DNA of 63,984 nucleotides, the filler included, from Acidimicrobiia bacterium (GTDB lineage Bacteria; Actinomycetota; Acidimicrobiia; Spongiisociales; CAZKJJ01): NCBI GenBank assembly GCA_046759765.1. It is 8 parts of 8 records of this genome, joined end to end, with 100 filler letters (N's around TTAATTAATTAA, not from the genome) between each part and the next. Parts side by side here need not be neighbours in the genome. Positions count along the whole stretch, not along the records: positions 9,045 to 17,798 come from JBHICV010000103.1; 7 more parts are not named here. One strand, given 5' to 3'. Position numbers and translations under genes: made by a program. Shown piece after piece: positions 7,369 through 60,321 of the stretch; within the stretch, counting starts at the first letter, position 1, and each line of letters begins with the position of its first letter. The notes below the pieces were generated by a model. That model was not told the DNA's origin, searched no databases, and saw only the letters and a list, made by a program, of their open reading frames with translations.

Positions 7369-8058
7369 TCACCGGCCGGCGGCCAGCTGCTCCCGTTGCC
7401 AGTCGTAGTCGATGTCGCCGTCGTAGAACCGCTCCGGATTCTCGATCGCCCACAGCTGCTTGCGGATGATCAAGTTGTCGGGCTGGAGTGGCATGGCCTG
7501 TTTCAGCAGATGGATGGCCTCCTCTCGGTCGCCATTCCGGTACGCCTTACCGGCGGCCCGGAACAGAGCAAGTGCCTCCGCTGACAGTTCCTCCACGCCT
7601 ACATCGATCGCGGCACCGTTCGGTTCCTCGGCCAGCCATTCCTCGATGAGCTGCCTTGTCTCCGGTCGGCGAATGTCGAAGCCGGAAGTCAAGACGGCGT
7701 CGATCTCACCGTCCGCGTTCACGAGCACCCCGTTGGGAACGGCTCTGAAGCCGAAAGCCGCTACCAGCAGATTGTCTTGATCGACCAGCGTCCGGAACGC
7801 CTCGAGTGTGGGGGCGGCAAAAGGTCGCGCCGCTTCCGGCCCTTGCGCGTCGGCCGCCACCGAAACGAAGGCGAGATCACCGTTCGCTTCTAGGAATTGC
7901 TGCCAGACCGGCAGCTGGTTGCGGCAACGTCACCACGACGCCCACATGAACACGACCAGCCGTTTCCCAACGAAGCTGATCAGGGACACTTTTTCGCCGT
8001 CGAGGTCAGGCAGCGTTATCGGCGGAAGTCGGTCTCCAGCTCGCACGAATCTTGTCAT
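7369..8058 (-). CDS. TlpA/peroxiredoxin-like selenoprotein (WASW-U-R-C) with C-terminal TPR-like helix pair, 229 aa
   Basis: ATG 8058; in-frame TGA at 7930-7932 (codon 43) in the thioredoxin redox position; frame continues into ORF 7369..7860; SECIS-like hairpin 7899-7915. Confidence 0.88.
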
Positions 8059-9044: not shown

Positions 9045-9352
9045 TCGGCGGAGTGACAGACGGCACAGCCGTTGCGAGCCGACAGCGACATGCCCAAAGA
9101 AACCAGATCCTGCGCCGGCCCTGTGGTCGTTGTGCCCTGTGTAGTAGCTGGCAGCGTTGTCGGCGCTTGAGTGGTAGCGGTGTCGCCTTCGGCGGCGCCC
9201 GCCGGGGCGACGGAGGTCGGCGGTGCGGTTGGGAGCTGCTCTTCGGCGGCGGTCTCGCCAGCCGGCCGTGATGTCACCGAGATGAGGTCGACCAGGATGA
9301 TTAGAAGAGCCAGCCCGGCCAGCGCCCCCGCTATACCTACCTGTCCGCGCAT
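9045..9352 (-). CDS. Membrane-anchored cytochrome c, 3'-partial
   Basis: TM anchor, Thr/Pro linker, CAVCH heme motif; cut by gap. Confidence 0.85.
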
Positions 9353-9367
9353 GCCGCAGTCCGTGCC

Positions 9368-9853
9368 TCAGCCGAGGGACTTCATGTATTCGGTGATGGC
9401 GGTGATGTCGTCGTCGGAAAGCTTGTCGGCGAAGTCCTTGGGCATCAGATCGGGCGGGAACCCTTCCACGATCTTGACGTTGGGATCCAGGATCGACTCC
9501 CGGATGTAAGCCTCGTCCACCACCACCGTGGAACCGTCAGTCAGCGTCTCGGTGGTCCCGAACAGACCCAACCAGGTCGGTCCCACCAGGGGGCTGCCGT
9601 CGGCGGAGTGACAGACGGCACAGCCGTTGCGAGCCGACAGCGACATGCCCAAAGCAACCAGATCCTGCGCCGTCGAAGTGGTGACCTCCCCAGCGGTAGT
9701 GGGTGGCAGAGTCGTCTCCGCCCGAGTGGTAGTGGGCTCACTCGTGGTCGGGCTTGCCGTGTCGGGTGCCGAAGTTCCGGCGGAGGAGCACGACGACAGC
9801 CAAACCAACAAGCCGGCGGCGACCGCTAGAAGCCCCCGGTGCGTACGCTCCAT
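9368..9853 (-). CDS. Cytochrome c lipoprotein (caa3 CoxB C-terminal cytochrome c-like)
   Basis: Lipobox LSSC; GCAVCHSADG; VGPTWLGLFG; YIRESILDP; distal Met in LMP. Confidence 0.92.
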   Translation of the reverse strand: MERTHRGLLAVAAGLLVWLSSCSSAGTSAPDTASPTTSEPTTTRAETTLPPTTAGEVTTSTAQDLVALGMSLSARNGCAVCHSADGSPLVGPTWLGLFGTTETLTDGSTVVVDEAYIRESILDPNVKIVEGFPPDLMPKDFADKLSDDDITAITEYMKSLG

Positions 9854-9871
9854 TGTACGGTGGCCGCCTGC

Positions 9872-10606
9872 TCAGCTCTCAGGGAGTACTGACTCGTCGG
9901 TATTGACGGTCCAGAGGATGTCCGCCTTGGAGCCGGGCGCGACGTCAGGGCTGACGCCGATCTCGATCACTCGATACCAGGCGCCGTTGGCGGGTGCCTC
10001 GTATACGAAGCTCATGCACAGACAGGTAGGCCAGAGCTTGCCGTTGAGCGAGCCGGGCGAGTCCTGGTGTGGCGCGACGATGAACGAGCGGTCCTCGGAT
10101 GATGGGTTCTCGTAGGCCAGCGTCACGGTCCCTTTCTCACCGGGTGCTAGGAAGATCGTGCTATCTGGGATCGGGTCGCCGACCGGGATCGCGGATCCGG
10201 CGGGCAGGGACTCCATTGCCCAGAGTGAGTTGACGGCAGGATCGGGTTCGAAGGCGACCAGCCCCACTCCGGGCAGCGGCTCCGGCAGATAGCCGAAGCT
10301 CAGCCTGACTGCCACCTGCCCGTCGGGCGGGTCCGGAATGTCCGCGGTGCGGTCTAGCAGGTGGGTCTCTGTCCCGGTCACAAACGCACTGACGGTGACC
10401 TCGGCCTGATCGAGGCCGTCTTCAACCGAGGCCAGCTCGTCTTGGGTGTCGGTGATGGTCGCCTGCAGGCCGGCCAGACTGTCGGCGAGTTGTGCTGCGG
10501 CCTGTGCCTGCTCGACAGACTGATCGGACGCCGGTTCGGAGGTCGTACACGCGGTCGCGGCTACCGCCAGCGCCACCATCCATAGGGCCTTGCGACTGGC
10601 TTTCAT
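9872..10606 (-). CDS. Lipoprotein with coiled coil and Cox11/CtaG-like CxC domain
   Basis: Lipobox ATAC; APGE..YENPS...TCLCM resembles Cox11 HPGE..AENx..ECFCF by eye. Confidence 0.6.
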   Translation of the reverse strand: MKASRKALWMVALAVAATACTTSEPASDQSVEQAQAAAQLADSLAGLQATITDTQDELASVEDGLDQAEVTVSAFVTGTETHLLDRTADIPDPPDGQVAVRLSFGYLPEPLPGVGLVAFEPDPAVNSLWAMESLPAGSAIPVGDPIPDSTIFLAPGEKGTVTLAYENPSSEDRSFIVAPHQDSPGSLNGKLWPTCLCMSFVYEAPANGAWYRVIEIGVSPDVAPGSKADILWTVNTDESVLPES

Positions 10607-10616
10607 GTTCGGCCTC

Positions 10617-11336
10617 CTATTGGTCGAGGGCTGCGACCGGCCACACCATCACCGCCTTGGCACCAGGAGGGGTGTCCGGACCTACTCCTACTTGGATCAC
10701 CCTGGAGAAGGTTCCTCCCGCAGGAGCCGAGAACGGAACGGCTGCGCACCAGCAGAGGTTCCTCACATAGGGCAATGCGGCCTGCGGGTCGAGCGTGCCG
10801 CCAGGCACGAGAAAGCGAATCTCCTCGTCGGTGGGATTCTCGAAAACGACCTGGAGCGTATAGAGCACTCCCGGATCTACGAATGCCAGCCCGTCCACCA
10901 GCTCAGGGCCCGTCTCGATAGCCTCACCGGCCGGCAGAGAGACAGTATCGAAAAGCTGAGCCCCTTCCGGCGCCAGGTAGAACTTGAACTCCCCAGGGAA
11001 CGCGGCATCCACGACTTCAGCGATGAACTGCACCGCCACCTGACCGGCGGGCGGGTTAGGTATGAATGTGGCCCTGCTGGGACCGACCCTCGCGAAGTCA
11101 AACTGCAAGGTCGCCTGCAATTCCTCTACGGCGGCCAAACGGTCAGAGAGATCGTGTGCGCTGGTGTGTAGTGCGTCTGCTTCGGCAGCGATCTGACCCA
11201 CTGCGACGTTGAGTTGGTCGAGCGCCTGCGTGACCTCCTCGTCGGCGGTGCCCACACCTCCAGTCGTGCAAGCCGCTGCAAGCAACACAACCGCGACCAG
11301 GCCCGCGGGCAATCGAAGTGCTCGTAAGGCAGCCAT
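10617..11336 (-). CDS. Lipoprotein, paralogue of 9872..10606 (Cox11-like, LCWC motif)
   Basis: ATG 11336 after GGAGG; lipobox LAAAC; PPxGQVAV, ENP, CxC, RVIxxGVxPD and PGxKA shared with neighbour. Confidence 0.65.
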   Translation of the reverse strand: MAALRALRLPAGLVAVVLLAAACTTGGVGTADEEVTQALDQLNVAVGQIAAEADALHTSAHDLSDRLAAVEELQATLQFDFARVGPSRATFIPNPPAGQVAVQFIAEVVDAAFPGEFKFYLAPEGAQLFDTVSLPAGEAIETGPELVDGLAFVDPGVLYTLQVVFENPTDEEIRFLVPGGTLDPQAALPYVRNLCWCAAVPFSAPAGGTFSRVIQVGVGPDTPPGAKAVMVWPVAALDQ

Positions 11337-11628
11337 CTGGCCTCCTTCCCCGGCGTCCGATTCGAGCTGGAACTCAGGCTCGGAGAACAATAGCAATTGG
11401 ATAACCCAATGTCTCGCGGCATCAGGCTCGTCTGGACACCCGCGGTACATAGGATCGAGATCCCTATGCGTCCGCATTTCGCTTGGTAGAGCTTCGCTCC
11501 ACAATCCCGACTTCTCTCGCATCTCCGATCGCTCAAACCCGATACTTCGGGAGATTCACATGACTACAGTGCACGATTCCGACACATGTCCATGCTTCAT
11601 CGCAGGTGACAAGGAATGGGAGGCCGCC

Positions 11629-11898
11629 ATGGCACGCTTCATTGTCAGCAACCAGCATCTGGCCGAGGACTGTCCCCAGCTCTCGAAAGAGCTCGTCAGC
11701 TATTACGACGCCGGCGAGGGCGAGGGGGCGATTGGCGTCTACTGCACTTGTTCCATTGGCGAGCACCGCATGCATTTCATCACCCACGCAGGTGGGCCAA
11801 CTGAAGCCTTGGCAGCGATACCGCCTGAATTCCTCCGAACATCAACGACGGTATCCAGGGTTGAACCGGCGTATGACTTCGCAAGTAGGGGCGCCTAG
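11629..11898 (+). CDS. Small His/Cys-rich putative metal-binding protein (H..EDC...YCTC..GEH)
   Basis: GGGAGG RBS before ATG 11629 (alternative ATG 11560). Confidence 0.65.
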   Translation: MARFIVSNQHLAEDCPQLSKELVSYYDAGEGEGAIGVYCTCSIGEHRMHFITHAGGPTEALAAIPPEFLRTSTTVSRVEPAYDFASRGA

Positions 11899-11964
11899 GA
11901 ACCTCGCCTCAGCCCTTAAGACCTCGGGGGGCGAGCCTTCGATCGGCAATGTGGCACTTGGCCT

Positions 11965-12669
11965 CTACCCGGCTGCCGCTTTCTTTCGAAGCGCGCGGGT
12001 GGGCTCAGTCCAGGTCTGGCGTGCTAAATCGAAGGCTTCCTCGGCAGTGAGGATGGCGATGTTGGGCAGATTCTCCAGGGCTTGCTCGGCGATCTCTCGG
12101 GAGGTAAAGAAGAGCATCGAGCTGCAGACCTCTGACTGGGGACCGACCACGGGCTGATCGTCCCCGGTCTCGGTGGGGTTCCTCCCGGGCACGAAGACAG
12201 AAGTCACCGCGGAAGGTGGGTCTACTTCAACGACTTCGTCGGCTGTGACGGTAAGCCGTATGGTGCCTCCTGTCACCGTGTCCGTCGATTCGATCTCCCC
12301 TGTGGTCTCCAGGACTCCTGGCAGCAGGATCGTGTCCAAGGAGCACCATGCGTAGAGGTCGTTGCCGTTGATCCGGATGCGGTGTCGGGTTGGCTTGAGG
12401 GTGAGGGCCATTCCGATGAAATCGCCGTTGTCGTTGAGCTGTCCGCCCGCCGCGTCGATCGCTTCGAAAAGGTCGTCGATCTTCTGTCTCGGGAGGCCGA
12501 GGAGCTCAGACGCCCGTTGCCGTGAGACAGGCTGGCCCTTTGACAGCTCCTCCAGAAGCCCGATTTGCATCAGGGGCGAGGTGTCCACACCGGCAGCTTC
12601 GTGCTTGGTCGCGACTCTCGCCGTCCACGCCGCGGCTACTTCTTCGGTGGATGGTCTCGACACCGTCAC
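11965..12669 (-). CDS. merB: Organomercurial (alkylmercury) lyase family protein
   Basis: N-terminal HTH-like part; LTLKPTRH; YAWCSLD (catalytic Cys/Asp); second Cys in VCSSMLFFTS. Confidence 0.88.
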   Translation of the reverse strand: MTVSRPSTEEVAAAWTARVATKHEAAGVDTSPLMQIGLLEELSKGQPVSRQRASELLGLPRQKIDDLFEAIDAAGGQLNDNGDFIGMALTLKPTRHRIRINGNDLYAWCSLDTILLPGVLETTGEIESTDTVTGGTIRLTVTADEVVEVDPPSAVTSVFVPGRNPTETGDDQPVVGPQSEVCSSMLFFTSREIAEQALENLPNIAILTAEEAFDLARQTWTEPTRALRKKAAAG

Positions 12670-12705
12670 TCACTCCCCGATCCGCGTCCGTCGATGAGAT
12701 GCAAC

Positions 12706-12723
12706 GATCGAGGTTCTTCGATC
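12706..12723. promoter_or_regulatory. Putative ArsR-type operator upstream of merB1
   Basis: GATCGA-ggttct-TCGATC; same ATCGA-n6-TCGAT core as at 16067-16112. Confidence 0.55.
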
Positions 12724-12785
12724 TATTCCGGAGGAAGCTCGGGTGTTCTCCCAACTATCAGATGGTCACGCCGGTGAGGGAGCCC

Positions 12786-13184
12786 TCAGTCTGGCGAGAT
12801 GATGGGACAGATCAACCCGGGGCTGCAATCCCCCGGGCTCAGCCGCTCGGCTCTCTCGGCCAGTCGGTGAAGTTCCTTCTTGATGTTGCGAAGAGCTTGC
12901 ATCCGCTCGTCAATCTCCGTGAGCTTTCTCTCGACGAGGTCAGCGACATGTCTACATGGTGCCTCGCCGCCGTCCCGGATATCAAAGACGGCTCGCACCT
13001 CCTTGAGGGTTAGCCCGGCTCGTTGGGCTGAGCGGACGAAGCCGAGTCGTTTAGCGGCCTTTTCGTCGTAATCGCGGTACCCCGAAGGCGTGCGATCGGG
13101 TGGGGGAAGGACGCCAACGTCCTCGTAAAACCGGATGGTTTTGGCAGGCACTCCCGTTTCGGCGGCCAGTTGCCCGATTCTCAC
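12786..13184 (-). CDS. MerR family heavy-metal-responsive regulator
   Basis: MRIGQLA..TIRFYE..RTPSGYRDY HTH; APC and C-x5-CPI metal ligands; GTG 13184. Confidence 0.93.
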   Translation of the reverse strand: MRIGQLAAETGVPAKTIRFYEDVGVLPPPDRTPSGYRDYDEKAAKRLGFVRSAQRAGLTLKEVRAVFDIRDGGEAPCRHVADLVERKLTEIDERMQALRNIKKELHRLAERAERLSPGDCSPGLICPIISPD

Positions 13185-13190
13185 GAGGAG

Positions 13191-13222
13191 ATCACCTTCC
13201 ATTCCGCTGGAAGGTATATAGT
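13191..13222 (+). promoter_or_regulatory. MerR-type operator and long-spacer promoter
   Basis: ACCTTCCA-n6-TGGAAGGT (13194-13215) lying between ATCACC and TATAGT, spacer 20 nt. Confidence 0.75.
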
Positions 13223-13247
13223 AGCGCAACTTTGTGAAGGGCCACAG

Positions 13248-13559
13248 GTGGAGGTCACGCTCCAATATTTCGACGACTGTGCCAACTGGAGGGTTGCGTT
13301 GAGCCGGCTGCAAGAGGTCCTGGGTAAGGACCACGAGATCGGTCTACAGCTGGTTGAGACGTTCGAAGACGCGGAGCGGCTGGGTTTCCGTGGCTCGCCC
13401 ACCGTGCTGATCGACGGAGCAGATCCTTTCGCCGACGCGTCGGCCCCGATCGGGTTCGCGTGTCGTGTGTATCGGACCGAGGGCGGAATGGACGGCGCCC
13501 CCTCCATCGAGCAGCTTCGGGATGCCCTGGGCAGGGACGCTGATCGAGGCTCACAGTGA
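13248..13559 (+). CDS. Thioredoxin-like mer-associated protein (YFxxC...FxGSPT...ACRVY family)
   Basis: Divergent from merR; motifs YFDDCANW, FRGSPTVLIDGADPF, ACRVY. Confidence 0.82.
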   Translation: MEVTLQYFDDCANWRVALSRLQEVLGKDHEIGLQLVETFEDAERLGFRGSPTVLIDGADPFADASAPIGFACRVYRTEGGMDGAPSIEQLRDALGRDADRGSQ

Positions 13560-13577
13560 CTTGTACGAGGTACCGTC

Positions 13578-14336
13578 TCAGCTCGTGCTGCTCACCACAC
13601 GCCACTGGCCCGGGCAACCCTCACAGTCCTGCCAGATCTGATCTGGCGGCTCGCCCCGCAGAAGACGCTCCGCCTCTTCGCGTAGCAGCACCCCGATCAG
13701 TTGTCCCTGAGGGTCGGTGACGATAACCAGCCTTGTTCCTCGTTTGGCCATCCGATCGACGAGAGGTTGGAGGAGACCGTTCGGTCGGACAGTGGTCGGA
13801 CCGAGCTCCATAACATCCCCCACTCGACTGTGCCCTTCGGTTTCCCAAGCATCGCTGCGGAGTCGGCCCAGGACCAGCGTGTCGCAGTCGATAACGACGC
13901 ACTCGTCCCACGCGGCGTCAAAGGTTCTACGCCTTACGTCACCGAGGAGCTCGCCCGGCGTACAAGTCGGGATATCGGGACGGGTCGAATCGCTTACCCG
14001 CTGTACGGCAGGAGCCTCGCCTTCAACCGGAAGCCCAGCAGCCTTCCAGTCGGCAATCCCTGCGACGTAGTCGTAGACCATTTCGAACCCAAGACTTTCG
14101 AGCCGGCACGCGGCTCGCGGAGACATGTCTCACAACCCATCATGTCAATAGACCACCACCGGCTTGTCATCCCGCAACACCGATACGGTCTCCACGCTGA
14201 GACGGCGCAGCGGGATGCTTATAGCCCCCGGGATATGCGACTCCGAGAATTCCCATTCAGGGAGGACATCGACAATCTGCGCATCCTCTTCCTCCGTGAG
14301 TCGAAGCAACTCCCTGCGGTCAATAGAGGTAACCAT
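13578..14336 (-). CDS. Rhodanese-CBS fusion selenoprotein with two in-frame UGA (VVVY-U-HDGL-U-DMSPRAA), 252 aa
   Basis: TGA at 14145-14147 and 14130-14132 join ORFs 14145..14336 and 13578..14126 in frame; SHIPGA and [13 protein letters not shown] rhodanese motifs flank them; CBS-like C-terminus; hairpin 14099-14117. Confidence 0.85.
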
Positions 14337-14703
14337 CCGAGTCTCCTTTCGCTCGAGGCCTTAACCGTCACCGGCGGCCACGCTTGGGTTTGCGAAATGT
14401 CGGGCTCAATCGGGCCTTGCGCCGACGGTCCAAGGCGCCGGATGCCGACATGGGCGATGCCTGTGCCATCGACACTGTCTTCCTTGTTCACGGTTCAGAG
14501 CAACAACCCATCGCGTCAACACAATACGAGCATGTAACCGACCGGTGCGACGTGTGCCTCCGTCCCCGCGCAGCGACTCAGGCACAGAGGTGCGATCTGG
14601 ACGCTTGAAGGTCACCCTTATGCCTTGCTGCGTATACCCGGACGTTCCGCCCTGCCGGAAGCGGCTCTCATGCTGTGGGTGCAGCTTCCTCCGTAAGGCT
14701 GCG

Positions 14704-14760
14704 ATGGCTCAGCTGCCAACGGGCGCGGTGGCATTCCTGTTCACCGATATCGAGGGTTAG
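14704..14760 (+). pseudogene. Remnant N-terminus of an adenylate cyclase gene (MAQLPTGAVAFLFTDIEG)
   Basis: Near-identical to the start of the 46204..48834 protein (MVELPTGTVTFLFTDIEG); ends at the stop of the convergent gene. Confidence 0.7.
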
Positions 14761-15227
14761 TAGGTGCTCGGGTAACGGGTCTGGAAGTCGATGAGCCCAA
14801 CCCATTCCGGTTTCACGGTGATGCGAGCCATGCCGTTGAAGGTGGCTTTGGCGTGGTCGCGGAATCGGGCGCCCTGGGTCGGCCCGAGGTAGCGGAGCGC
14901 CGACTCGGCGTACTCGTCGACCGCGCCTTCGACGATCTCGATTTCGGCTCTTCCTCGGACGAGCAGGATGCTGTAAGGGGGCTTCTCGCTGTCGACGGTG
15001 ACCGCCACCGCCGGGTTGGCGCGGAGGGCACGGACTTTGGGTGAGGCTCCTGCGGCTCCGAACACGAACTCGGTGCCGTTCCAGGTGAACCAGATCGGCG
15101 TGACCCGAGGAGTGCTGTCGGGAGCGATATAGCCGAGCCTTGCCGGGATGGCCGACTCGAGAAGCTGTTGGGCAACCGGGTGGTCCAATAAGTGGAGGTC
15201 GCCCTGGGGTAGCTGATCGAGGGACAT
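14757..15227 (-). CDS. Pyridoxamine 5'-phosphate oxidase family (PPOX-class) protein
   Basis: ARLGY...PRVTPIWF...KVRALRANPAVAVTVD; ATG 15227 after AAGGAGG. Confidence 0.88.
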   Translation of the reverse strand: MSLDQLPQGDLHLLDHPVAQQLLESAIPARLGYIAPDSTPRVTPIWFTWNGTEFVFGAAGASPKVRALRANPAVAVTVDSEKPPYSILLVRGRAEIEIVEGAVDEYAESALRYLGPTQGARFRDHAKATFNGMARITVKPEWVGLIDFQTRYPSTY

Positions 15228-15244
15228 ATCCACCTCCTTCGCGA

Positions 15245-16003
15245 TCAGCAAACCTGGGGTGCGTTCTGGTCGACCACGGGTCTCCACATGGCAGCAGCGT
15301 CTTCGGCAACTCCGGCCACGGAGACGATCTCGCCGTCCAGCTGGTGGTCTTTTACCCATTCTTCGGCGGCATGGCGGCTGGTGAAGAAGTTGACCATCGG
15401 GCACCAGGTCTCTTTCAAGTTCACGTCTGCGTGACCATCAAGAATGAACAGCGTTGCATCTCCTTCCGGCTTGCCGTTGCGGAAGGTGATCTCGATCTGG
15501 TCGCCGGTGCCGGGATCGGTGGAGTGGACCGTCCCATCGCCTCCCAGGGCGCCCAGGATCCCGACGGCGTCAAGCGCGCACCATGCCCAGCGAGTGGCGC
15601 CTTCAATATGGATACGATGGCGGGTCGGCTCAATGGAAAGCCCCGCAATGCCCGTCAGACGACCTTCGGGGTCGAGCTCGACACGGCCTCGGGCTCCGGC
15701 CCGATTCATAACCTCGGCGAGAGTCGATCGATCGACACCAGCCGACGTCGCCCAGGTCCCCTGGTCCACCGGATGACCCTGCTCGAGAAGCAGTCGGAAG
15801 CCGGCGGATCGCAGTGCCGCCACCTCAGGTGAAACTTCCTCCTCGTGAAGCTCGGAGAGAGCCTCCGAGCCTTCGTACCCGTTCGCCGGGACAGAACAGC
15901 ACGACTCCAAGGCGCAGTGTGAATCTGACGAATGAGCAGTACTGGCGCGCGGGGCGCAGCAGCTCGCGGCCACGTTGGGGTTGTGGTAATGGGCGGTAGT
16001 CAT
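15245..16003 (-). CDS. merB: Second MerB-like lyase with Cys/His-rich N-terminal extension
   Basis: GLSIEPTRH, WAWCALD, WCPMVNFF; N-terminal SCC..HC..SCC; ATG 16003 after AAAGGA. Confidence 0.85.
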   Translation of the reverse strand: MTTAHYHNPNVAASCCAPRASTAHSSDSHCALESCCSVPANGYEGSEALSELHEEEVSPEVAALRSAGFRLLLEQGHPVDQGTWATSAGVDRSTLAEVMNRAGARGRVELDPEGRLTGIAGLSIEPTRHRIHIEGATRWAWCALDAVGILGALGGDGTVHSTDPGTGDQIEITFRNGKPEGDATLFILDGHADVNLKETWCPMVNFFTSRHAAEEWVKDHQLDGEIVSVAGVAEDAAAMWRPVVDQNAPQVC

Positions 16004-16066
16004 GATCAAAGGTCCTTTCTCGTCAGCAAACTGTGACATCCCGAACCAGAAGCGACGTTAACTCCA

Positions 16067-16112
16067 CCCATCGAGATTCCTCGATGGGAATAAACCATCG
16101 AAGTTTCTCGAT
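16067..16112. promoter_or_regulatory. Two ArsR-type inverted repeats between divergent merB2 and arsR
   Basis: CCCATCGAG-attc-CTCGATGGG (16067-16088) and ATCGA-agtttc-TCGAT (16097-16112). Confidence 0.7.
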
Positions 16113-16133
16113 TAATCCCCGTGGAGGTTCAAA

Positions 16134-16514
16134 GTGTCAAAGGTTGGACAGATCACCTGCGAATGCGAGACCACCACCGCTTGCTGTGTGGCGCTCGAGG
16201 CCGAACCCATTGACGAACCCGTCGCCGAAGATCTAGCTGCCGGCTTCAAGGCACTCGGTGACCCCTATCGCGTGGCGATCGTTCATCTCATCTCCGGCGC
16301 CGCAGGACCGGTGTGCGTCGTAGACATCGAACGGCACCTGCCTCTTGCCCAATCCACGGTCAGTTATCACCTGAAGTCTCTGGTCAATGCTGGTGTGTTG
16401 GATCGGGAGCGTAGGGGCCGGTGGAGCTACTACACGGTCCGTCCCGAGCGGCTCGACACCCTCACCGAATCACTGGATAAGTACGCGCAGAGGATTAGCG
16501 CAAGCAGTTCTTGA
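16134..16514 (+). CDS. ArsR/SmtB family metalloregulator with N-terminal CxC..CC
   Basis: FKALGDP.R, VCVVD, QSTVSYHL, ERRGRWSYY. Confidence 0.93.
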   Translation: MSKVGQITCECETTTACCVALEAEPIDEPVAEDLAAGFKALGDPYRVAIVHLISGAAGPVCVVDIERHLPLAQSTVSYHLKSLVNAGVLDRERRGRWSYYTVRPERLDTLTESLDKYAQRISASSS

Positions 16515-16541
16515 CCTTCCAGCTGGTGGAACCCGTACGGT
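16511..16541 (+). promoter_or_regulatory. MerR-type promoter (19-nt spacer) upstream of the CcdA-like gene
   Basis: -35 TTGACC at 16511-16516, -10 TACGGT at 16536-16541, dyad (ACC)TTCCA-gctgg-TGGAA between them. Confidence 0.7.
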
Positions 16542-16574
16542 TGAGACGCTGACAGCCCGTACGGGTGATGATCG

Positions 16575-17405
16575 ATGGATGAGGTGACCGCTCGCCGAAG
16601 GGCTCGGGTCCGGTTCGGAGCGACAGCACTCGGTCTGGTCTTCGTCGGTGTGGCCGGATACTTGGGCTTCGTCGCCTTTGTGGGCTCTGGCCGCCAAGTG
16701 GCTGCGGGTGTGATGGTGCTGGCAGCAGTGACCGGGTTCGCTGCGTTTTTCTCGCCGTGTTCGTTCCCTCTGCTGCTGACATTCCTCGGCAGACGATCGA
16801 CCGAGTCACCTGGTGCGGCGCTGGCGAGCGCGCTGCGGGTCGCGGCCGGGGCCGCGTTGCTGCTCGGCGCCGTGGCCGCGGTCATTGCTTTGGGAGGGTC
16901 CGCCCTGGGCGGCGTCGTCGAGTTCGACAGCACCGTCGGGAGGCTGTTTCGGCTCGGCGTTGGGCTGTTGTTGGTGTTGTTCGGACTCCGTCAGGCGAGG
17001 CTGTGGGACGTGCGCATGCGGTGGCTGGATCGGATCGCCGGACTGTCGGCCCGGGTGTTTGATCCCGGGCGAGCCACCAATCCTGTCCGCAGTGACGTGG
17101 TGTATGGCCTTGGGTATCTGCTGGCCGGGTTCGGGTGAACCGGGCCGCTGCTCGCCGGTCTGGCAGCTCAAACCTTGACCGTGGGGGCGACGCAGACCGC
17201 CGCGGCCTTCACGGCCACCACCATCGTGTTCGCGCTGCTGCTAGTCGCCGCATCAGTCGTCGTGTCGACTGCCAGCAGCGAGGCTTTGCGCCCGGTCAGG
17301 ATGACCGGACCCGCAGTAAAACGATGGTCCGGCTACGTCCTTCTCGCTGTTGGTGCCTGGTTCATCGTCCTCGCCGCGTTACCCAGTCCGATCCTGGGGT
17401 CTTGA
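16575..17405 (+). CDS. CcdA/DsbD transmembrane-domain-like selenoprotein (SPC ... G-U-TGP), 276 aa
   Basis: FFSPCSFPLL first Cys; TGA 17136-17138 at the second-Cys position (GCTGP); in frame with ORF 17175..17405; SECIS-like hairpin 17147-17167. Confidence 0.85.
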
Positions 17406-17687
17406 CCTCCAATCCGATCCCAGGCATCGCCGAGTTCGCTGAGGTTCCTCACGCGCCTCGATCGAGTGAGTGGGCTGAGGCAAGACGCCGCTCCTTATGG
17501 AAGCGGACGGAGGACGGCTCGATATCGGCCCTCCTGGCTTCTTCGACTCTACGCATCTACCTGGAAGCAGGCCCCAACCGGTGAAAAGGACACCCGCTTA
17601 GGCACTGTCCAGCGCGCCTACCAACCTGAGTGACGTGGAGGCCACCGCGTCTGGCAGCCTCCACTGAGTCGGCTCGTTTCAATTTTC

Positions 17688-17759
17688 GTGGGCCCACCCG
17701 GTTCAGCTTCCGGCGTGGGGACTTAGGGGAGCAGCAGAAACCTACGGATTATGAGTCCG
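17688..17759 (-). pseudogene. Interrupted 3' half of a CAT-anticodon tRNA (Ile2/Met); possible att remnant
   Basis: Minus strand reads CGGA-CT-CAT-AA-TCCG-TAGGT (17740-17759) and an acceptor-like GGGTGGGCCCAC (17688-17699), separated by unrelated sequence. Confidence 0.5.
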
Positions 17760-17798
17760 TTTCAGTACGGCTGTGTGGCCAGCGGAATCGTTTCAGGC

Positions 17799-59292: not shown

Positions 59293-60321
59293 TCAGTGGA
59301 GCGTGATCGTTTGGGGTCCCTCGGTGATGTGGCCGATGACAGCTGCGGCCAGTGTGCCCTCGGCAGCTAGCGCCGCAAGAAGGGCGTCGACGTCGTCCGG
59401 AGCGACCGCGATAAGAAGACCGCCGCTGGTCTGGGCATCGGCTAGGACCCTGATCGTGGTGTCATCCAGGTCTCCAAAGTCACTGAAGCTCTCGGCCGAC
59501 TTACGGTTTCTTCGGCTTCCTCCCGGATAGATTCCCTCGGCGGCCAACTCCCTTACACCTTCGAGAACCGGAACTGCGGCCGCGTCGATTGCGGCTGCTA
59601 CTTCAGAAGCACGTATCACTTCGCCGAGGTGGCCGAGCAGACCGAACCCCGTTACGTCCGTGGCAGCGTGTGCTTCCACCGATGCCATGGCCCGTGCCGC
59701 GCCATCATTGAGTTTCGTCATCACATCGACCGCGGCATCGCGCTGCCGGCTTGTTGCCCGACCGCGCTTGATCGCAGTGGAGATGATTCCGGTACCCAGC
59801 GGCTTGGTAAGCACCAGTGCATCGCCTACCTGGGCTCCGGCATTCGTGACTAGGTTGTCCGGCTCAACGAGTCCGGTCACGGCAAAGCCGTACTTGGGCT
59901 CTTGGTCGTCGATCGAATGGCCGCCCACGATCGAACACCTCGCTTCCGAGAGGACCTTCTGCCCTCCCTCGATGACCTCCTCTAGAAGGTCAAACGAGAG
60001 CTCCTCGCGGGGCCAGCTCACCAGCTGGAGCGCAGTGAGGGGCGTTGCTCCCATGGCGTATATGTCGGACAGCGCGTTGGCAGCGGCGATCCTGCCCCAG
60101 TCGTAGGCCTCGTCCACGATGGGCGTGAAGAAGTCAACTGATTGCGCGACGAGCTGGCCGGATGGGAGACGGAACACGGCTGCATCGTCTGCCGTCTCCG
60201 GCCCCACCAGCAGGTCGACGTCTGTGGGAGGTTGCAACAGGCGCAGGACCTGCGCCAGCTCGTCAGGACCGAGCTTGCAAGCTCAGCCGGCGCCGTGCGA
60301 GTAGCGGGTCAGTTTGGTCAT
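59293..60321 (-). CDS. selD: Selenide, water dikinase (Sec-containing), 342 aa
   Basis: ATG 60321 MTKLTRYSHGAG-U-ACKLG with TGA 60283-60285; DDAAV, DFFTPIVD, NALSDIYAMG, TDVTGFGLLGH, DAQTSGGLL. Confidence 0.96.

Follow-up and report, generated by a model that had tools for sequence, protein, structure and literature searches.

A conserved, metal-regulator-controlled gene set with two probable selenoprotein genes and MerB-family lyases in an Acidimicrobiia genome

Results

Gene content of the locus

The window analyzed in the present study is a stretch of 63,984 bases in which eight contigs of one metagenome-assembled genome (MAG) of an Acidimicrobiia bacterium (C102-C108 and C273) stand end to end, and the locus of interest, at window positions 11629-17405, lies entirely on a single contig of 8.75 kb, C103 (window positions 9045-17798). 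Genes for two MerB-family lyases (merB1 and merB2), a MerR-type and an ArsR-type regulator, a small thioredoxin-fold protein (trxL), a rhodanese-CBS protein with two in-frame TGA codons (rhd), and a CcdA-like membrane protein with one such codon (ccdA) are encoded there, together with predicted operators and hairpins (Table 1). The locus is one of two copies in this genome (G000; 2.73 Mb in 308 contigs, 92% complete) of a conserved gene set of Acidimicrobiia that is controlled by metal regulators, and the in-frame UGA codons of the rhodanese-CBS and CcdA-like genes are, judging from sequence comparisons, very probably read as selenocysteine (Sec). A sequence-only reading of the window had described this contig as a candidate island for the selenium-dependent detoxification of organomercury or other metals; its observation was confirmed and its interpretation partly supported, and we infer, as it did, that the selenoproteins may accept, relay, or sequester metal, or keep thiols reduced.

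Comparisons were made within a set of 41 genomes consisting of G000 and 40 relatives (among them the unpublished G015), within a class sample of 301 Acidimicrobiia genomes (among them the unpublished G293), in a wide scan that yielded 80 species-level loci of the rhodanese gene, and with 80 metagenome loci of the CcdA-like gene, 30 of which extended at least 2.5 kb downstream. The patterns of the wide scan demanded Cys at the first loop position of the rhodanese, and, therefore, forms with Sec (U) at this position could not be found by it. The closest public relatives of the module genes are in Acidimicrobiia MAGs. Within the window, the joints between contigs consist of paired 44-N spacers around 12-base linkers, and features on either side of a joint are not real neighbors.

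Table 1. Features of the locus, with positions counted along the window.
Feature	Position	Strand	Evidence or remark
Small Cys/His-rich open reading frame (ORF)	11629..11898	+	ORF; may reach upstream to ~11560
merB1, MerB-family organometal lyase, 234 aa	11965..12669	-	PF03243 E 2.3e-24
merR, MerR-family metal regulator	12786..13202	-	PF13411, PF09278, PF00376
MerR-type operator dyad (predicted)	13194..13215	.	Inverted repeat
trxL, thioredoxin-fold, "DF family (seleno)protein" type	13248..13559	+	NF049942 E 8.8e-18
rhd, rhodanese-CBS gene, in-frame TGA codons 64 and 69	13578..14336	-	PF00581 E 4e-17, CBS E 1.5e-5
SECIS-like hairpin of rhodanese gene	14099..14117	-	CGAGCCG-CGUGC-CGGCUCG
PPOX-class F420-type oxidoreductase gene (ppox)	14757..15227	-	PF01243 E 6e-11; start codon inferred
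merB2, MerB-family lyase, 264 aa	15245..16039	-	PF03243 E 9.5e-25
Two tandem ArsR-type operator dyads (predicted)	16067..16112	.	Divergent merB2/arsR intergenic region
arsR, ArsR/SmtB metalloregulator	16134..16514	+	PF01022; NF033788
ccdA, CcdA-like six-helix membrane protein, TGA codon 188	16575..17405	+	Own stop is TGA 17403-17405
SECIS-like hairpin of CcdA-like gene	17152..17166	+	5-bp stem, GGUCU loop

Rhodanese-CBS gene

The two UGA codons of the rhodanese-CBS gene, codon 64 (14145-14147) and codon 69 (14130-14132), fall within a loop that reads VVY-U-HDGL-U-DMS, and the predicted protein also has a conserved Cys77 and a C-terminal CxxC motif. Orthologues with 59-64% identity were found at 10 places in nine of the 41 genomes, with the frame kept across the UGAs, and a paralogue with 50% identity lies on contig C36 of G000; two TGA codons are present at eight of these 11 places and one at the other three, and the translated orthologues share an invariant block opening PVVVY-[U/C]. 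At the level of the class, an orthologue occurs at 29 places in 25 genomes, and 27 of these places (two TGA codons at 13 and one at 14) have at least one in-frame TGA. The wide scan returned 25 loci of the C-X4-U form and 54 of the C-X4-C form. Exchange between Sec and Cys was seen at both loop positions, and Cys aligns at both in other lineages; in Acidimicrobiia, Gaiellales, Thermoleophilia, Nitriliruptorales, and several Chloroflexota, it is the second position at which Sec stands. Among the 33 distinct UGA-form genes, the first position, which is the canonical catalytic one, is Cys in 26, and the second, U69, is always Sec.

Bacterial selenocysteine insertion sequence (SECIS) elements are recognized by rules on their distance from the UGA and on their apical loop, which should have a G close to its beginning. 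A hairpin with the loop CGUNN begins 12 nt past UGA-69 and 27 nt past UGA-64, such that the two UGAs, which are 15 nt apart, have one hairpin in common. The 7-bp stem is complete in 32 of the 33 distinct UGA-form genes versus 12 of 53 Cys-form genes, and, although both forms encode the same ...SPRAAxRLE, the UGA forms avoid those Arg and Ala codons that are incompatible with the stem. Compensatory double changes occur in the locus L069 and in the paralogue on C36, and 99.6% of the aligned cells are paired.

The rhodanese was also considered as an arsenate reductase of the Cdc25/Acr2 type, the hallmark of which is a CX5R motif, and this candidate was rejected because the loop ends in Asp, not Arg. 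Several other contigs from the sequencing runs X2-X4 match the window only where the rhodanese UGAs and hairpin lie in conserved surroundings (14085-14133) and then diverge, and at least one of them has another UGA at the first loop position, which suggests further Sec-rhodanese variants in the same communities. One locus, of a member of the Dehalococcoidia, lies behind a copper-type P-ATPase gene.

CcdA-like membrane protein gene

The in-frame UGA of the CcdA-like gene is codon 188 (17136-17138), in the context GFG-U-TGP, and a Cys residue, Cys62, is located in FFSPCSFP. Orthologues read on through the UGA (59-69% identity, a range that covers both UGA genes), and six genomic copies examined had TGA in four cases and Cys in two. 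Codon 188 is TGA in 71 of the 80 metagenome loci, Cys in one, and unreadable in eight. The best 120 public homologues listed include 109 that end exactly at ...AGFG, before the UGA codon, and seven full-length proteins with Cys.

A hairpin with a 5-bp stem and the loop GGUCU begins 13 nt past the UGA, and 98% of cells are paired over 60 sequences. Stem pair 18-30 is UA in 24, CG in 15, GC in 10, and UG in five sequences, while pair 20-28 is CG in 56 and UA in four; this covariation, at synonymous sites, had a score that was reached by none of 500 shuffles. The hairpin of the window itself has a C-A mismatch at pair 4.

Membership of this protein in the CcdA/DsbD superfamily was evident only from sensitive comparisons. 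PF02683 matched none of 13 family members at E values up to 1, no NCBIfam model matched the protein, and a profile of the family found no match among PDB sequences at E values up to 10; two public homologues carry a precomputed PF02683 match, and JGI and NCBI name some members CcdA. An hhalign comparison of the 13 CcdA-like proteins with 13 PF02683-positive proteins of relatives gave a probability of 96.7% and an E value of 3.4e-10 over 201 columns, with SPC placed on SPC and GFG-U-TGP on TPCIGP, such that Cys62 and Sec188 correspond to the two redox-active Cys residues of CcdA. An AlphaFold2 model was of low confidence (mean predicted local distance difference test score, pLDDT, 61.7), and a Foldseek search with this low-confidence model returned the nuclear magnetic resonance structure of Thermus CcdA (5vkv) as the top and sole high-probability match (probability 0.98, E 0.1, TM 0.40/0.46). 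On the strength of the profile-profile alignment, the membrane protein is a divergent superfamily member and not a Pfam-level one; the "Sec-CcdA" of the sequence-only reading thus stands with regard to the in-frame UGA and the superfamily, and not with regard to Pfam membership. An ordinary housekeeping CcdA is also encoded in G000 (C4:29222-29794), and a search for longer forms of the CcdA-like protein found no fused homologue, which is weak evidence.

Decoding of the UGA codons

The Sec reading rests on the alignment of UGA with Cys in homologues, on strong protein conservation that continues downstream of the UGAs, on hairpins specific to the UGA forms, and on the Sec machinery. G000 encodes SelA (416 bits), SelB (338 bits), and a SelD with one in-frame TGA (390 bits), all of which score above their NCBIfam cut-offs; selD lies within the window (59392-60321, minus strand), and its TGA (60283-60285) falls at the active-site Cys/Sec position in SHGAGUACK. 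The use of Sec in Acidimicrobiia, including a Sec-type SelD, has been reported for Actinomarina in a 2026 preprint. The same UGA positions recur in 27 of 29 class-level rhodanese places and in 71 of 80 CcdA-like metagenome loci, which argues against true stops or lesions. A genome-wide reassignment of UGA was rejected, as TGA also serves as the ordinary stop of these very genes. Four runs of a single study also gave contigs that carry the TGAs, and, among the matches listed, no differing letter was found there, a comparison in which the best match may come from the source sample; the UGAs are, thus, not a one-off assembly error. These contigs are of DNA, and no RNA run was listed for the region.

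Two points count against the Sec reading itself. Covariation in the rhodanese hairpin is slight (one pair, in two sequences), and tRNA-Sec was not found in the 308 contigs of the 92% complete G000 assembly by Rfam, by ARAGORN, or by blastn with the selC genes of relatives. The best Rfam matches were tRNA-Leu and tRNA-Ser, ARAGORN reported 46 tRNAs, none of which was Sec, and an Rfam scan of the selA, selB, and selD loci gave chance matches only. Five of five relatives tested that carry the gene have a tRNA-Sec (58-80 bits), and its absence in G000 is read as an assembly gap because the assembly is in 308 contigs. For the Sec machinery, the absence of which the sequence-only reading had named as refuting, the outcome was in favor of that reading: selA, selB, and a Sec-containing selD were recovered, and the tRNA was not. 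At C145:4936-5021, ARAGORN reported a tRNA with an unassigned identity and a four-base anticodon reading (ggct).

Conservation of the gene set

The second copy in G000 (C36:7317-11089; locus L036) is compact: rhd with two TGA codons, a Cys form of the CcdA-like gene adjacent to it, a merB2-like gene, and trxL lie on one strand, and the opposite strand has merR and merB1. In this copy, the merB2-like gene is frameshifted between the SHEIVTDG and WTWCAVD blocks and represents either a pseudogene or an assembly error.

The sequence-only reading had named beforehand a lack of conserved linkage as an observation that would refute it, and the outcome was in its favor: the arrangement MerR-(MerB)-TrxL-Rhd(Sec), with or without a CcdA-like(Sec) protein, recurs in relatives and on metagenome contigs. 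MerR-(MerB)-TrxL-Rhd was found in seven of the eight other genomes with fetched loci, in one of which (G003) ccdA belongs to the same operon, and the eighth, G039, has a contig that breaks off within trxL. Within 3 kb of the rhodanese gene, the 25 C-X4-U species loci have TrxL in 15, MerR in 11, MerB in six, and a CcdA-like protein in one, versus 10, five, three, and none, respectively, of the 54 C-X4-C species loci. The 30 CcdA-like metagenome loci with sufficient downstream sequence have MerR in 15, TrxL in 14, Rhd in eight, MerB in four, ArsR in four, and PPOX in two, usually in the order ccdA-merR-trxL-rhd on a single strand. The CcdA-like gene is rarer than the rhodanese gene in the 301 class genomes (six versus 25).

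Most of the gene set of the window recurs in a rearranged form, as follows from the layouts of four metagenome loci (L172, L186, L190, and L206), each of which holds arsR, ccdA, merR, trxL, rhd, and merB2, with ppox also present in L190 and L206. In L172, L186, and L206, arsR upstream and a divergent merB2 are added (with ppox in L206), and the order in L190 is arsR-ccdA-ppox-merB2-merR-trxL-rhd. The conserved core is, accordingly, ccdA-merR-trxL-rhd and not the unit drawn in the sequence-only reading.

Regulators and operators

The best NCBIfam match of the MerR protein was TIGR02051 (99.6 bits, under its cut-off). It has three conserved Cys residues, and the MerR proteins of the loci fall into two subtypes, both of which have a Cys at the start of the dimerization helix and two C-terminal Cys residues, a pattern typical of sensors for divalent soft metals. 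The predicted MerR-type dyad, ACCTTCCA-n6-TGGAAGGT, is followed immediately by a -10-like box, TATAGT, oriented toward trxL, and it is identical in the C36 copy. It is homologous to the dyad CTTCAA-n6-TTGAAG, which stands between TTGACC and TACGTT with a 20-nt spacer in L062, L063, L066, L067, and L104; the promoter of these five loci, of a classical MerR type, drives merB-trxL-rhd, and that of the window has a poor -35 (ATCACC).

The ArsR protein has a Cys-rich N terminus (CECETTTACC), matches NF033788 above the cut-off (81.5 bits), resembles the sulfite-sensing BigR (E 4e-6) and TsoR (E 2.4e-8) weakly, and is 40% identical to the product of an ArsR-type gene located directly upstream of merA on contig C85 of G000. 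Its predicted operator is a pair of ATCGAnnTTCnTCGAT dyads, ATCGAG ATTC CTCGAT and ATCGAA GTTT CTCGAT, between the divergent units merB2-ppox-rhodanese and arsR-ccdA. Dyads of the ATCGAnnTTCnTCGAT type also occur upstream of arsR in all five metagenome loci examined, in two copies in L172, L186, L206, and L181 and in one copy in L190. The two regulators with matching operators in the sequence-only reading are, thus, borne out by dyads that are conserved in relatives and in metagenome loci.

MerB-family lyases and the thioredoxin-like protein

Both lyases belong to PF03243 (86 and 87 bits against a cut-off of 27) and keep the catalytic Cys/Asp/Cys residues, in agreement with their initial description as MerB-like. 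MerB1 aligns with solved MerB structures (3f2g/1s6l, E ~1e-22), with the equivalents of Cys96/Asp99/Cys159 in WCSLD and VCSS. Among solved structures, that of Bacillus MerB2 (5c17, E 2.2e-19) is the best match of the window MerB2, which has its equivalents of Cys/Asp/Cys in WCALD and WCPM and the orthologues of which (at 52-55% identity) adjoin arsR-ccdA in L172, L186, L190, and L206. The N-terminal 70 residues of MerB2 form an extension rich in Cys pairs (SCCAP..., ESCCSV) that is absent from solved MerB proteins and that may be a built-in metal receiver.

TrxL matches NF049942 over its full length (model positions 1-96, E 8.8e-18), just under the cut-off (64.1 versus 70 bits), and has no Pfam match. 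Cys11 and Cys72 are invariant in its family, and all 17 aligned members have Cys, not Sec, at the first position. An AlphaFold2 model (pLDDT 90.7) has thioredoxins as its best PDB folds (E ~0.03, probability ~0.9), which is in keeping with the thioredoxin-like protein originally proposed here. A complex prediction for the DF protein and the rhodanese, made with natural Cys-form orthologues, scored 0.00 against a mark of 0.32 and is evidence neither way.

Mercuric reductase in the genome

As the sequence-only reading had noted, no merA, merT, or merP gene is present on C103, which, with all of the locus on this contig, merely indicates that there is none within 8.75 kb. In the rest of the genome bin, a merA gene was found on C85; its product (544 aa) has an NmerA motif, GMHCDGC, and scores 571 bits against a cut-off of 454. 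MerT (PF02411) has no match in G000. The merA cluster (C85:5897-9583; L161) consists of genes for a ResA-like membrane-anchored redoxin, an extracytoplasmic function sigma factor, an ArsR/SmtB regulator (7559-7828), and MerA, and it also includes a gene for a membrane protein of 88 aa, the first helix of which has a CC pair and the match of which to MerT reaches only E 0.02. Another pyridine-nucleotide disulfide oxidoreductase is encoded at C85:3602-5290.

MerA above the cut-off occurs in three of the nine genomes with a rhodanese orthologue (G000, G004, and G030) versus seven of the 32 others, and, among the genomes compared, these three are those whose MerR-TrxL-Rhd module includes merB. MerA-like flavoprotein paralogues below the cut-off, with one in-frame TGA each, are encoded at G009:C16:200235-201584 (375 bits), directly after merA, and at G004:C72:2105-3445 (341 bits); they are possible Sec-containing disulfide reductases.

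Other genes at the locus

The ppox gene, between merB2 and the rhodanese gene, matches TIGR03618 with 67.7 bits (cut-off 79), and L190 and L206 have a homologue (77% and 29% identity, respectively) among the genes of this set. The small His/Cys-rich protein of the sequence-only reading is a real ORF without a Pfam or NCBIfam family and without a homologue elsewhere in G000 or among the fetched loci; it was, therefore, left out of the module, to which it probably does not belong. Upstream of the module, at 9368-11522 on the minus strand, are genes for a lipoprotein-type cytochrome c and for two paralogous lipoproteins with a weak likeness to the LIC11469/Lsa20 family and with one CxC motif each (TCLCM and LCWCA). 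These genes were rejected as module parts because they are not beside the module in other genomes.

Discussion

The locus described in the present study looks like a split, MerR/ArsR-controlled relative of the rhodanese/DsbD selenoprotein design that is linked in some genomes to MerB. In PMC13188914, which cites Haft & Tolstoy 2025, TsoB (NF045694) is described as a rhodanese/DsbD fusion-like selenoprotein with the motif UxxxxU and two Sec residues. The loop U-HDGL-U of the window rhodanese is such a UxxxxU motif, the rhodanese is likewise functionally coupled to a DsbD/CcdA-type membrane domain, and the Tso system also has an ArsR/SmtB regulator, TsoR, which the window ArsR weakly resembles. 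However, the rhodanese and the membrane protein are encoded here by separate genes, 2.2 kb apart and on opposite strands, the rhodanese has a CBS pair and a C-terminal CxxC, and the membrane protein itself has a putative Sec, whereas the two Sec residues of TsoB are the UxxxxU pair. The partners also differ, with MerR, a DF-family protein, and MerB in the place of TsoA, TsoC, TsoX, and TsoY. TsoB was the best NCBIfam match of the window rhodanese, with 43 bits against a cut-off of 805 and over model positions 52-168 only, and, because of the score, the fusion, and the partners, the rhodanese is not a member of that family.

A role of Sec in organometal chemistry has already been put forward in the literature through the Sao system of Clostridioides and relatives, in which, according to PMC13188914, SaoL is a MerB-like selenoprotein lyase and SaoT a thioredoxin-like selenoprotein. 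The module resembles that system, as described there, in that a MerB-family lyase is encoded together with selenoproteins, and differs from it in that SaoL is itself a selenoprotein with a CU motif while both window lyases are Cys proteins, and in having CcdA-like and rhodanese-CBS proteins instead of ABC transporter parts; the window MerB proteins match SaoL weakly (E 1.7e-4 and 8e-6). The surveys of Zhang and Gladyshev, as tabulated in PMC13188914 and PMC9312934, list a Sec-containing MerT-like "putative mercuric transport protein" and a UxxU "putative mercuric reductase / metal-binding protein". They set a precedent for Sec at metal-binding Cys positions in proteins that handle mercury, among them a membrane transporter and a two-Sec motif; however, the families are PF02411 and the HMA type there and the CcdA superfamily and rhodanese here. 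No Sec-containing CcdA-like protein was found in the available parts of these two reviews, in which the only DsbD entry, in PMC13188914, is TsoB. Full-text literature searches on selenoproteins with CcdA or with Acidimicrobiia found nothing on this module, and the claim of novelty is provisional.

The CcdA-like protein resembles CcdA and the DsbD beta domain in having two redox residues within P-C-x-x-P-type motifs of pseudo-symmetric halves. Unlike CcdA, its family is too divergent for Pfam, the second redox Cys is replaced in most members by the putative Sec, an extra N-terminal helix is present, and the gene is located in metal-regulator operons and not among cytochrome c maturation genes.

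In classical mer operons, such as those of Tn21, Tn501, and R831b, MerR controls the transporters MerT/P/C/F, the reductase MerA, and the lyase MerB, and mer genes in Streptomyces are under an ArsR-type regulator. The module shares with this arrangement a three-Cys MerR, a dyad within a long-spacer promoter, MerB proteins that keep the Cys96/Asp99/Cys159 equivalents, a membrane protein with a paired Cys-type site, and an ArsR-type regulator such as that beside merA in the same genome. It differs in that it has no merA, merT, or merP, its MerB proteins are under the equivalog cut-offs, its transporter-like gene belongs to the CcdA superfamily, a thioredoxin-fold protein of the DF family and a rhodanese-CBS selenoprotein are its partners in the cytosol, and most genomes with the module core are without MerA.

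We tentatively favor, with a confidence a little short of an even chance, the reading that the module is a Sec/Cys chain for the handling of Hg(II), including the Hg(II) left on MerB. This reading is preferred because merB is co-regulated, MerR has three Cys residues, an ArsR paralogue is encoded at merA, and Sec is known from MerT-like and metal-binding proteins. The conserved operators, the catalytic residues kept in both MerB proteins, and, as a Rosetta-stone hint, the match of the rhodanese to the fusion selenoprotein TsoB also count in its favor. A soft metal, most likely Hg(II) or an organomercurial, would derepress the module genes, and MerB would cut the carbon-metal bond and hold Hg(II). 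From MerB, the metal would then move to the di-selenol loop of the rhodanese and to the DF protein with its Cys pair, since selenolates bind Hg more tightly and exchange it faster than thiolates, and the Cys62/Sec188 pair of the CcdA-like protein would pass across the membrane either the metal or reducing equivalents that keep the sites free. Where MerA is present, as on C85 of G000, Hg(II) would end there; in its absence, the module would act as a high-affinity buffer.

Several findings speak against this reading or narrow it. In the form given to it by the sequence-only reading, a selenium-based alternative or supplement to the mer pathway, the alternative does not hold for this organism and the supplement does: with a full-length MerA encoded on C85 behind its own ArsR-type regulator, the module in G000 would be a supplement to MerA. 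MerA above the cut-off is absent from six of the nine genomes with a rhodanese orthologue (86-100% complete), and merB stands beside the core in a minority of cases, namely six of 25 C-X4-U loci and five of 80 CcdA-like loci, such that the core is independent of MerA and MerB and is not tied to organomercury. Both lyases score under the NCBIfam MerB cut-offs of 193-200 (merB1 143 and merB2 91 bits; NF009710, 193), and their substrate may not be an organomercurial. The Cys-type rhodanese-CBS homologues in Streptomyces, Micromonospora, and Nonomuraea have unrelated neighbors with no common theme. Moreover, Hg imported by a cell that lacks a reductase would do harm, an argument against a role of the CcdA-like protein in Hg uptake, and, to our knowledge, the DsbD/CcdA superfamily has been connected only with electron transfer and not with metal transport.

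A somewhat unlikely but serious rival is a relay of electrons and not of metal, in which the CcdA-like protein would pass reducing equivalents outward through a Cys62-Sec188 selenylsulfide, as CcdA, DsbD, and ScsB do, the di-Sec rhodanese and the DF protein would be dedicated cytoplasmic donors, and merB would be an occasional passenger. The control of such a system by metal regulators would follow from the damage that soft metals and copper do to exposed thiols, and the ScsB/ScsC copper-tolerance system is a precedent. The placement of Cys62 and Sec188 on the redox Cys residues of genuine CcdA, the top fold 5vkv (from a low-confidence model), and the thioredoxin fold of TrxL are consistent with an electron relay, and Cys77 and the C-terminal CxxC of the rhodanese could resolve a diselenide. 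TsoB, in which a rhodanese loop of this kind is fused with a DsbD-like domain, and the ResA-like redoxin in the merA cluster on C85 point in the same direction, and, with a core that exists without merB or merA in most genomes, an electron relay fits the superfamily and the many genomes that lack these genes better than the metal chain. On the other hand, no gene for an extracytoplasmic thioredoxin-like acceptor is conserved in the module among the loci examined, G000 already has a housekeeping CcdA, the rhodanese fold is no known partner of DsbD/CcdA, and, in several relatives, co-regulation with merB through a single MerR-type promoter is easier to reconcile with a metal path.

It is distinctly unlikely that the core represents a MerA-independent, selenium-based neutralization of mercury or organomercury without reduction to Hg(0). 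The membrane Cys/Sec pair and the di-selenol loop would in that case capture Hg(II), including that released by MerB, and the metal would be held or converted as Hg-selenolate, HgSe, or HgS, or passed out of the cell, which would explain why most core-carrying genomes are without a mercuric reductase.

Rhodaneses are capable of perselenide chemistry, and an antagonism between Hg and Se is known. A very unlikely reading, along these lines, is a transfer of chalcogen, in which the rhodanese would carry a persulfide or perselenide on its Sec/Cys loop, either supply sulfide or selenide for the trapping of Hg(II) as inert HgS or HgSe or handle reactive sulfur or selenium species, and have its loop recycled by the CcdA-like and DF proteins. 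The rhodanese domain (E 4e-17), the Sec at the canonical catalytic position of the di-Sec forms, and the weak similarity of ArsR to BigR and TsoR are compatible with it, and neutralization without a reductase would explain a module that lacks MerA in six of nine genomes. However, the position that is always Sec is U69, whereas 26 of 33 UGA-form genes have Cys as the canonical catalytic residue; no gene for sulfur oxidation, sulfide:quinone reductase, persulfide dioxygenase, or selenium metabolism is linked in the loci examined; and the regulators, a three-Cys MerR and a Cys-rich ArsR, look like metal sensors.

A reading of the UGAs as genuine stops, as lesions of pseudogenes, or as errors of the assembly within a chance neighborhood, for which the tRNA-Sec not found in the assembly, the truncation of the CcdA-like protein by gene callers in 109 of the best 120 homologues listed, and the frameshifted merB2-like gene on C36 might be cited, is nearly excluded by the recurrence of the same UGA positions, the conservation downstream of them, their pairing with Cys, the hairpins, selA, selB, and a Sec-type selD, and the contigs of four runs.

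If the metal-handling reading is true, the module, in which a rhodanese with one or two Sec residues is linked to MerB lyases through operon structure and through conserved MerR and ArsR operators, would be a concrete place at which selenium chemistry meets the handling of mercury and organometals in uncultured Actinomycetota. It would also bear on the environmental cycling of mercury and on genomes with merB but without merA, which are a puzzle in the mer literature. A common membrane family of sediment and vent Acidimicrobiia would have been systematically mis-annotated, cut at the UGA, and would be a selenoprotein with Sec at a redox-active position inside the membrane. The existence of a split form (rhodanese and CcdA-like) and a fused form (TsoB) would argue that both parts act on each other, and their comparison would help to explain the still unexplained Tso system. 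Taken together, the present results suggest that selenium helps these bacteria to handle mercury-like metals.

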